From the IMG/VR virus record IMGVR_UViG_3300021399_000002, positions 32,001 through 96,000 of that record: a DNA stretch of 64,000 bases; one strand, 5' to 3'. This document shows positions 37,035 to 37,707 of the stretch, in pieces. Within the stretch, counting starts at the first letter, position 1, and the number at the start of each line of letters is the position of its first letter. Under the pieces are notes generated by a model, which was not told where the DNA came from, did not search any database, and worked only from the letters and a program-made list of their open reading frames with translations. The stretch is from a virus (lineage: Duplodnaviria; Caudoviricetes). A program made the translations under genes and the position numbers.

Positions 37035-37707
37035 GATACCGCAGAAAGGATGATGCGGGATAAAAATATCAACCATCCTTATATGGTCAAGAACTTGAAA
37101 TTAGTTACAGTCATATATTGAGTCCTGAAGCCGTTAATGTGAGAACGACTATGCGTGAATGCTTGTGAAGTAAAGTAACAATGCTAAAACACATTTAAAA
37201 CGCTAGGCACTGGAAACTCCATACGAAGATAGGAGGCCCACTGGAGAATAGCAGGTGTAGGTCTTTATATGCGATAGACCAACTTAGTACATAATGTGGC
37301 TAAACTTGGAATATTAAGTATAATGTAAAGGAACCTCAAGTGTTAAGGTGAGTGACCAGGGACATCAGCATATAAGTGACAGCGAGAACTCCTTTGACTT
37401 ATATGTTCGCCCGAAGACTAGACTATGCTGAAAGGTCGCAGGCATGTGGAAGTATGGAATGGCATCCAAGTTAGATGTACACGAGAATTGGGTTAAAGGA
37501 TGCTAATTGAGTACGCGGCCAGCTCGTTAAATCGGCCTCAGAGGTACCAGTCACTCTGTATAATAACGACTGTGTATCATAGGTGTGATGGCGGCGGCAC
37601 CTAAAATCGCCACCGTGCGGCGCCAGTGGGATAATGTTTAAAGCAAAAGTCGCCCCTTAAGACTGGCAAATTTACTTCGGGACAGCATTTGCTGTCCCAC
37701 TTTTTTA
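37035..37707 (+). ncRNA. Large pseudoknot-rich ncRNA (about 670 nt, unassigned) ending in a terminator
   Basis: No ORF; four H-type pseudoknots; GGGACAGCA-TT-TGCTGTCCC plus T tract. Confidence 0.6.

Follow-up and report, generated by a model that had tools for sequence, protein, structure and literature searches.

Large, highly structured function-orphan RNAs of bacteria and phages are rare, OLE, GOLLD, ROOL, HEARO and raiA being the main examples, and each of them opened new biology, the latest being RNA-only nanocages. GOLLD (RF01998) and ROOL (RF03087) are phage-encoded, lie beside tRNA islands, measure hundreds of nucleotides (nt), contain several pseudoknots and are highly abundant. In transfer-messenger RNA (tmRNA, RF00023), a single upstream pseudoknot is joined by a downstream row of three or four H-type pseudoknots in tandem, their loops rich in A, and the type III antitoxin RNAs (ToxI) consist of pseudoknotted units with A-rich segments and are met in a phage setting. 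Y RNAs and YrlA are structured non-coding RNAs encoded beside a Ro60-fold protein (Rsr) and RNA-repair genes; in the Thermus phage phiLo, two Y-RNA-like RNAs, Yrl1 and Yrl2, lie just upstream of the Ro60 gene, and complexes with host PNPase are described (PMC12135203). Here we analysed a stretch of 64,000 nt (the window, positions 32,001 to 96,000 of the IMG/VR record IMGVR_UViG_3300021399_000002, numbered below from its first letter) from a complete phage genome of 182,655 bp with direct terminal repeats. The window carries a gene for an RNA of about 670 nt that shares the traits of structure, location and abundance listed above with the respective systems. This RNA is non-coding, structured, conserved, expressed and syntenic, and it is a member of a previously undescribed structured-RNA family outside Rfam 15.

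37038-37706, + strand: the whole RNA gene (5' domain, middle domain, 3' pseudoknot core and terminator), its 5' end placed by comparison with relatives and its 3' end given by the terminator

An original prediction, made from the letters of the window, had described this region as free of open reading frames (ORFs). TAA and TGA stops are indeed present in all six frames of 37035-37707, and the RNA is therefore non-coding under any stop reassignment, including the probable recoding of TAG in this phage; coding under another genetic code was ruled out on the same ground. The G+C content is 0.40-0.50 in the RNA region compared to about 0.30 in the flanks. Folded as a whole, the + strand gained nothing in energy over its shuffles (z = 0.01), and the - strand only a little (z = -1.2). 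As the RNA is pseudoknotted, folding energy says little here; because shuffles matched it, thermodynamics alone would not pick the region out, whereas comparative data do.

The first relatives were gathered through the methyltransferase gene located downstream, followed by nhmmer searches upstream of that gene. The RNA stretch was kept in 14/16 loci, and its 3' third was nearly identical even in loci where the methyltransferase protein was only 50-74% identical. A wider scan used a signature motif, GGGATAATG...CAAAAGT.GCCCC, taken from the most conserved part of the RNA (the PK-D domain described below), and returned 25 stretches in viral contigs and 92 in metagenome contigs. True copies were present in 129 loci, 92 of them non-identical, all of which are ruminant-gut phage or metagenome contigs, and the public runs containing the sequence are labelled as gut, bovine, goat or sheep gut metagenomes. 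The same motif gave two chance matches only in 185,579 prokaryote species genomes (L044 and L045; related loci are cited by such numbers), neither of them with a profile hit, and no prophage or host was found in that set. Only one clade of ruminant-gut phages has the RNA. The RNA occurs as a single copy in the 182.7-kb genome and likewise once per genome among the relatives.

The 3' core was aligned over 81 instances with a covariance model that holds nested stems only, and base pairs were then counted in a nine-helix model that includes three crossing stems. The elements of the core and the terminator that follows it are:

37508-37537, + strand: PK-A, stem 1 37508-12/37522-26, stem 2 37517-20/37534-37
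37539-37572, + strand: PK-B, stem 1 37539-43/37554-58, stem 2 37548-52/37568-72
37581-37612, + strand: PK-C, stem 1 37581-86/37597-37602, stem 2 37589-94/37607-12
37619-37667, + strand: PK-D domain, with an outer helix (37622-27/37662-67), a GGG:CCC helix (37628-30/37654-56) and a variable inner hairpin (37635-45)
37679-37706, + strand: intrinsic terminator, an 8-bp stem at 37679-37698 followed by a T-run

In this model 96.5% of the cells are paired compared to 31-39% with slid partners, and both sides change in 21/43 pairs (152 cells). The covariation score is 0.195, a value reached by 0/500 shuffles, with slid controls at 0.031 at most; three further measures were also reached by 0/500 shuffles, slid controls being 3-20 times lower. 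The crossing stems of PK-A and PK-B covary although they are absent from the covariance model. Frequent G:U pairs fit the + strand only and thereby fix the strand. Covarying pairs amount to 4/5 in stem 1 and 4/4 in stem 2 of PK-A. The two helices of PK-B are paired at 100% and 99.2%, with stem 1 varying between CAGAG, GTGAG, CCGAG and GTGGAG, partners matching, and stem 2 between CCAGTC and CCGGTC. Stem 1 of PK-C has 4 covarying pairs (AGGTG/CACCT exchanged for AGAAG/CTTC); stem 2 is 88.5% paired with one-sided variation only in the common register, and it is wholly replaced in a shifted register by GTGGA/TCCAC in L055 and by GGCGG/CCGCC in L019. In the PK-D domain, helix 7 has 4 covarying pairs and helix 9 covaries; the GGG:CCC helix (helix 8) is invariant, as is a possible crossing helix (GGCG 37619-22 with CGCC 37651-54) that is compatible in 81/81 sequences. 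The letters of the terminator stem differ among relatives with pairing retained.

The upstream parts of the RNA fold into further domains.

37039-37080, + strand: PK1, stem 1 37039-43/37054-58, stem 2 37046-52/37074-80, with an A-rich loop between
37081-37116, + strand: H2 hairpin of the 5' domain, with complementary variants of its outer stem
37122-37208, + strand: three-way junction of the 5' domain, in which a long-range helix (37122/37124-26 with 37205-08) is followed by the helices below, with a variable hairpin H4 between
37129-33/37146-50, + strand: H3, 95.5% paired, 2 covarying pairs
37153-56/37200-03, + strand: GCGT:ACGC helix, invariant
37136-41/37190-95, + strand: PK2, the loop of H3 paired with the strand just before the anchor, 6/6 pairs covarying
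37210-37505, + strand: optional middle domain, with a closing helix (37219-24/37452-57) and inner hairpins at about 37368-37406 and 37462-37503

Stem 1 of PK1 is 100% paired with 2 covarying pairs, and stem 2 occurs in complementary variants (GATGG:CCATC, GGATGT:ACATCT, AAGGATG:CATCCTT and GGGGAT:ATCCTT). The outer stem of H2 has many fully complementary variants of 6-8 nt, such as CTCGTA:TACGAG, ACATAAC:GTTATGT and TGTAGCG:CGCTACA. Both H2 and stem 2 of PK1 failed on MAFFT columns by misalignment and were re-extracted by anchors, the shuffle control for H2 being weak (5.9 vs 5.0 nt). PK2 has at least 7 complementary variants among relatives, and the long-range helix is 100% paired with covariation between G:C and A:U. 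For the middle domain, RNAalifold on 12 sequences predicted 48 pairs, 14 of them with compensatory changes. The RNA thus holds at least six pseudoknots backed by covariation. Four of them had been proposed in the original prediction and are present where it put them, namely CCGCA/TGCGG with AAGGATG/CATCCTT (37039-37080), TGAG/CTCG with GGCC/GGCC (37508-37537), CAGAG/CTCTG with CAGTC/GACTG (37539-37572) and AGGTG/CACCT with TGGCGG/TCGCCA (37581-37612); PK-D, the second 5' pseudoknot PK2 and the closed middle domain are additions to it. The terminator that it had placed at the end of the RNA is likewise found, at 37679-37698 with its T-run.

The architecture is modular. The commonest form, of about 400 nt, consists of the 5' domain and the 3' core; in the window and a few relatives, a middle domain measuring about 290 nt separates the conserved AACGCTAGGCA anchor from PK-A, the insertion falling exactly between these two, so that all three parts are present in the window. 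Some relatives have the middle domain and the 3' core right behind the stop codon of an ORF or right behind a tRNA (L038/L041), and others have the 3' core only, or the core with a different 5' part. The minimal natural forms measure about 200 nt, terminator counted (L012, L003 and L019). PK-A is swapped for a plain hairpin in L012, L074, L083 and L099, and L055 retains just PK-C and PK-D; the universal core is therefore PK-C and PK-D, nearly always with PK-B. The median nucleotide identity of the core to the window is 91%, compared to 70% for the adjacent kinase gene (66% at the amino acid level), and the unpaired and core nucleotides are very highly conserved, with near-invariant loops. To string at least six small pseudoknots together with self-contained domains is an unusual building principle, and the serial small domains together with versions of about 200 nt make the RNA well suited to structure determination and dissection.

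No family of Rfam 15 was found on 37035-37707, either at gathering thresholds over the window or at E<=10 over the element, nor on the element in ten relatives at gathering thresholds and in 20 at E<=1. A blastn 'distant' search of GenBank phages gave no match to the RNA, and it proved undescribed in a literature search; fragments of it may sit among the unnamed candidates of the IMG/VR structured-RNA catalogue (PMC10690425). The original suggestion of a new large RNA is borne out by the lack of any Rfam 15 match for the element in the window or in 30 related loci, by strong covariation (0/500 shuffles as high in the 3' core), by conservation above that of the neighbouring gene and by RNA contigs restricted to the element. 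Its likening of the tandem pseudoknots to ToxI arrays was not supported: the four 3' pseudoknots are different and individually conserved, Tandem Repeats Finder gave no array inside 37035-37707, and no ToxI-type Rfam family was matched. Among the ten neighbouring ORFs there is no toxin-family match, none in Pfam, and no ToxN/AbiQ-type or defence protein, the sole PADLOC match being a weak one to mad2 (the methyltransferase). The RNA differs from ToxI in having neither tandem identical repeats nor a family match nor, among these ten ORFs, a cognate toxin; what the two have in common is H-type pseudoknots with A-rich loops and no more, a feature of tmRNA and many other RNAs as well.

The other described systems were compared in the same manner. 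The RNA has no tRNA-like domain, no tag reading frame and no match to a tmRNA-clan Rfam family (E<=10), and it ends in a terminator instead of CCA; ARAGORN finds no tmRNA in the window, in agreement with the earlier remark that tmRNA ends are missing, and in L034 a genuine tmRNA coexists with this RNA. With GOLLD it shares the layout, a universal 3' region and a variable 5' region to which tRNAs can be covalently linked, but this is a likeness of niche and layout, not homology: the covariance models of GOLLD and ROOL show no similarity to it (E<=10 for the window element, E<=1 for 20 diverse relatives). GOLLD and ROOL each form one large multi-junction fold, whereas in this RNA small H-type pseudoknots and self-contained domains follow one another, with minimal natural forms of about 200 nt including the terminator. 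Compared to Y RNAs, it is 3-6 times larger and lacks a terminal stem made by pairing of its two ends, a bulged helix for Ro binding and a tRNA-like module; its 5' end is PK1, its 3' end is the terminator hairpin, and all supported helices are local to their own domains. It is missing from most phages that encode a related Ro60-like protein. The ribozymes of the hepatitis delta virus (HDV)-like and theta type are nested double pseudoknots with a catalytic C that cleave at their 5' edge, and they need a P1 of 6-7 bp, whereas the candidate P1 here has 4 bp, is invariant and comes with no Rfam match. A riboswitch or attenuator leader lies between a promoter and a start codon, whereas here a promoter sits between the terminator and the gene. 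At least one tested defining feature is thus missing in each comparison, with tmRNA, GOLLD, ROOL, Y RNA, the HDV-like ribozyme and the riboswitch leader alike. The stable RNAs 'species 1 and 2' of phage T4 lie in a tRNA cluster, are co-processed with tRNAs, measure about 120-140 nt and are not known as pseudoknot arrays. The likeness to them concerns their general description as stable RNAs co-located with phage tRNAs.

Expression was assessed from metatranscriptome contigs of two studies. RNA covered 37009-37485 (one contig of 477 nt), 37135-37485 (in the other study) and 37509-37669; such contigs give neither strand nor exact ends, and stretches without RNA cover are no evidence of absence. 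The shared 3' core is present at high depth in RNA libraries, and ROOL and a tRNA-like piece are covered too. The flanking ORFs gave no RNA-library contigs though DNA sequenced from the same sample gave a cover of about 25-30x throughout. These data support the view that the RNA accumulates abundantly as a stable RNA, and it is abundant in rumen metatranscriptomes. One RNA contig starts 26 nt inside the upstream ORF. In L102, L115 and L125, a consensus TTGACT-17-TATAAT precedes a conserved (T)ACCGC by about 7 nt, and in L079 and L114 the 3' end of a tRNA abuts this (T)ACCGC position. Because the promoters and the tRNA ends of these relatives point there, the 5' end of the window RNA would lie at about 37038-41. 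Two tRNAs stand behind the RNA core in L055 (1173-1536, - strand) and two tRNAs before it in L118 (230-537, - strand); as the core lies between tRNA genes in these loci, the RNA can belong to a tRNA precursor transcript. A further promoter is located behind the terminator, and the ATTTGAC right behind the T-run is invariant in the alignment of relatives, i.e. its -35 region is conserved.

37709-37737, + strand: promoter of the downstream cluster, TTGACT-17-TATAAT with 11/12 matches, outside the RNA and abutting the terminator in the relatives examined

The region upstream of the RNA has a feature of its own: a 24-nt tandem repeat (36980-37028, + strand, 1.9 copies) forms the 3' end of a 75-aa ORF, where a D-Y-x-(L/F)-(S)-K-E-D motif is thereby doubled, and it shares sequence with the probable promoter region of the RNA.

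The genes downstream of the RNA are constant in kind. About 80 instances have a sufficiently long downstream flank, and in all of them a repair cluster stands behind the terminator, composed, in this order, of an optional S-adenosylmethionine (SAM) methyltransferase, a polynucleotide-kinase-like P-loop kinase, a metallophosphoesterase, a small ORF and a DUF2828/DUF7788 protein. The first gene after the RNA is the methyltransferase or the kinase, with single cases of the phosphoesterase (L114) and of the Ro60-like gene (L055). The PHROG matches of the neighbours are polynucleotide kinase, phosphoesterase and phrog_850 'RNA-binding protein', and the kinase resembles the kinase domain of bacterial Pnkp. 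In the window the kinase gene occupies 38557-39024 and the phosphoesterase gene 39214-39852. Upstream of the RNA, small conserved ORFs without family matches are found and the neighbour varies (different ORFs, tRNAs or a dedicated promoter). The neighbours considered below are:

35933-36391, + strand: orf152, the most constant upstream neighbour, abutting the RNA in the 3'-only forms
37766-38557, + strand: SAM methyltransferase, with weak TrmB-like (tRNA m7G46) and 'tRNA methyltransferase' PHROG matches and a weak PADLOC mad2 match
40343-41884, + strand: DUF2828/DUF7788 protein, a predicted full-length Ro60/TROVE ring with a vWA domain

The DUF2828 protein is predicted to have the Ro60 fold: a model built from a 23-sequence alignment reached a predicted local distance difference test (pLDDT) score of 76, and the 12 PDB structures that match it best, over the full length, are without exception Ro60 proteins, that of Thermus phage phiLo among them. 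This protein has at least 7,632 homologues at E<=1e-5, and among the 120 matches listed none is informatively named. Its gene lies 2.6 kb downstream of the RNA in the window and about 0.2-3 kb from the terminator in the relatives where it was found, the gap between the RNA and the Ro60-like gene being 218 nt in L055. The methyltransferase was rejected as an obligate partner: it is missing from about half of the instances, and two distant homologues located outside the repair cluster (L014 and L016) stand without the RNA. For orf152, no Pfam, PHROG or NCBIfam match was obtained, a protein-atlas search gave a weak lead to DUF488, and a single-sequence AlphaFold model was unusable (pLDDT 36). The fixed place of the RNA before the kinase, phosphoesterase and Ro60 cluster in stop-codon-recoded, tRNA-rich phages provides a concrete connection of an orphan RNA with RNA repair or counter-defence.

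The reading that we tentatively favour is that of a trans-acting RNA that works with the adjacent repair and Ro60 genes. Both the action in trans and the work with these proteins are what we infer from the position of the RNA, always directly before RNA heal-and-seal and quality-control genes, from an adjacency that is invariant despite gene gain and loss, from the counter-defence setting and from the phiLo precedent. The RNA would be transcribed on the + strand from its own promoter or within a tRNA-containing precursor and would stop at its own terminator; it would fold into independent domains strung in series. The near-invariant stems and loops of the 3' core (PK-B, PK-C and PK-D) would then most simply serve as a specific binding or assembly surface, and the RNA would be a partner (scaffold, tether or regulator) of the kinase, phosphoesterase and Ro60-fold module, analogous in logic, not in structure, to the Y RNAs encoded beside Ro60 genes. 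A bolder version, which we consider rather doubtful, is that of a third large ornate phage RNA class, structurally unrelated to GOLLD and ROOL: H-type pseudoknots arranged as beads on a string would constitute the dedicated RNA subunit of a phage machine for RNA repair or quality control. Such an RNA would be a giant counterpart of Y RNA in function, bringing the Ro60-fold ring and the heal-and-seal enzymes, or host exonucleases, to damaged tRNAs in the infected cell and tethering them there. Several observations weigh against the partnership. In 62/79 phage loci with Ro60-like proteins, no copy of the RNA is present within the flank, up to 6 kb; in most of these 62 loci the Ro60-like protein is about 50% identical to that of the window, and most have no kinase and phosphoesterase upstream of the Ro60-like gene. 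The RNA is therefore not generally required by the Ro60-like protein, whose standing as an obligate partner is weakened, and it is tied to the specific arrangement of one clade. Moreover, the RNA has none of the defining features of Y RNAs and exceeds them 3-6 times in length, a strong independent promoter separates it from the cluster, and the synteny may reflect only shared ancestry within one phage clade.

Other functions were weighed against the same data. Self-assembly into a homo-oligomer, a cage or ring like those of ROOL and GOLLD, would make the invariant loops inter-subunit contacts and the repair cluster merely the next transcription unit. The niche is that of ROOL and GOLLD, in phages and tRNA islands, with a ROOL gene 2 kb upstream in the window and beside the element in L034, L041 and L074; the layout is GOLLD-like in its universal 3' region, variable 5' region and covalently linked tRNAs (10.1101/2024.12.08.627333); the RNA accumulates in RNA libraries as ROOL does; and its unpaired nucleotides are very highly conserved. 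An RNA-only particle is nevertheless unlikely, given that there is no sequence or structure similarity to ROOL or GOLLD, that the minimal forms of about 200 nt are far below any known cage-forming RNA and that no covarying intermolecular pair was found, palindromic loop segments (GTAC and GGTACC) being present without compensatory variation. The string of pseudoknots may instead be a nuclease-resistant decoy or inhibitor that sequesters a host factor and so shields phage RNAs, the candidates being an abortive-infection endoribonuclease (ToxN-like or an anticodon nuclease), a protein with an S1 domain (ribosomal S1, PNPase or RNase E/R) or the ribosome. There is a likeness between pseudoknots pk2-pk4 of tmRNA and the units of ToxI, and pseudoknots are bound by S1. 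Such a role would suit the counter-defence neighbourhood, in which a tRNA array with a suppressor tRNA is followed by RNA-repair genes, the serial H-type pseudoknots with A-rich third loops and the abundance of the RNA, and strong sequence conservation would suit a conserved host target. We nonetheless hold it to be quite unlikely, and a strict mimic of ToxI to be barely credible, as tandem direct repeats, a toxin or defence homologue nearby and a ToxI-type family match are all missing. A tRNA splint or decoy acting by base pairing was rejected, the complementarity to phage tRNAs being ordinary (longest 10 nt vs 9.5 in shuffles).

A function in cis would make the RNA either a 3' untranslated region that stabilises or insulates the transcript of the upstream small ORF, or a signal-sensing leader or attenuator of the repair cluster. 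In many loci the RNA begins where the upstream ORF ends, at its stop codon, the terminator lies about 55 nt ahead of the first repair gene, and the RNA contig that starts inside the upstream ORF would fit such a transcript. However, the consensus promoter that follows the terminator in the window, with its -35 region conserved in the aligned relatives, means that read-through into the repair cluster is not needed; the same RNA libraries show no mRNA of the upstream ORF, the RNA is preceded now by one ORF or another, now by tRNAs or a dedicated promoter, and 400-670 nt with at least six pseudoknots and near-invariant loops go far beyond the needs of a stabiliser or attenuator, so that a cis-acting element is improbable. 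Part of the RNA might also act as a ribozyme, for example PK-D with its possible GGCG:CGCC helix, a nested double pseudoknot of HDV-like topology, which would cleave itself or process the linked tRNAs. While several relatives have tRNAs adjoining the RNA, 81/81 sequences allow the crossing helix and the core nucleotides are invariant, no HDV-like, hammerhead, twister, pistol or hatchet match was obtained even at E<=10, the putative P1 is just 4 bp and invariant, and the would-be cleavage site at 37619 is spanned by unbroken RNA contigs. The HDV-like reading of PK-D was not supported, and we regard a ribozyme of any kind as very improbable.

The RNA gene lies downstream of a tRNA array of 24 genes (23157-34065 of the window). 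When TAG is read as sense, the long-ORF content of the whole window goes from 28 to 56 kb; since it nearly doubles, TAG is probably recoded in part of this phage. The ORFs called on both sides of the RNA (35154-41884) are open in the standard code. Further RNA features of the island are:

22710-22775, + strand: cow-rumen-4, an Rfam orphan metagenome motif beside the tRNA array
23157-23242, + strand: suppressor tRNA with anticodon CTA, a member of the tRNA array
25910-26053, + strand: cow-rumen-3, an Rfam orphan metagenome motif inside the tRNA array
34551-35130, + strand: ROOL RNA (Rfam, 266 bits), a separate gene 2 kb upstream of the pseudoknot RNA

These sites place the orphan motifs cow-rumen-3 and cow-rumen-4 in a phage tRNA island. 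With ROOL and both motifs in the same window, the tRNA islands of these phages prove densely packed with RNA genes. In the related phage L034, a canonical tmRNA gene (L034:10633-10985, - strand) lies inside the tRNA array, besides ROOL and the pseudoknot RNA. RNA-library contigs cover 34579-35110 of the ROOL gene in the window, and one of them starts at 34579 right behind a remnant of the Illumina adapter, a start that may correspond to a real RNA end.

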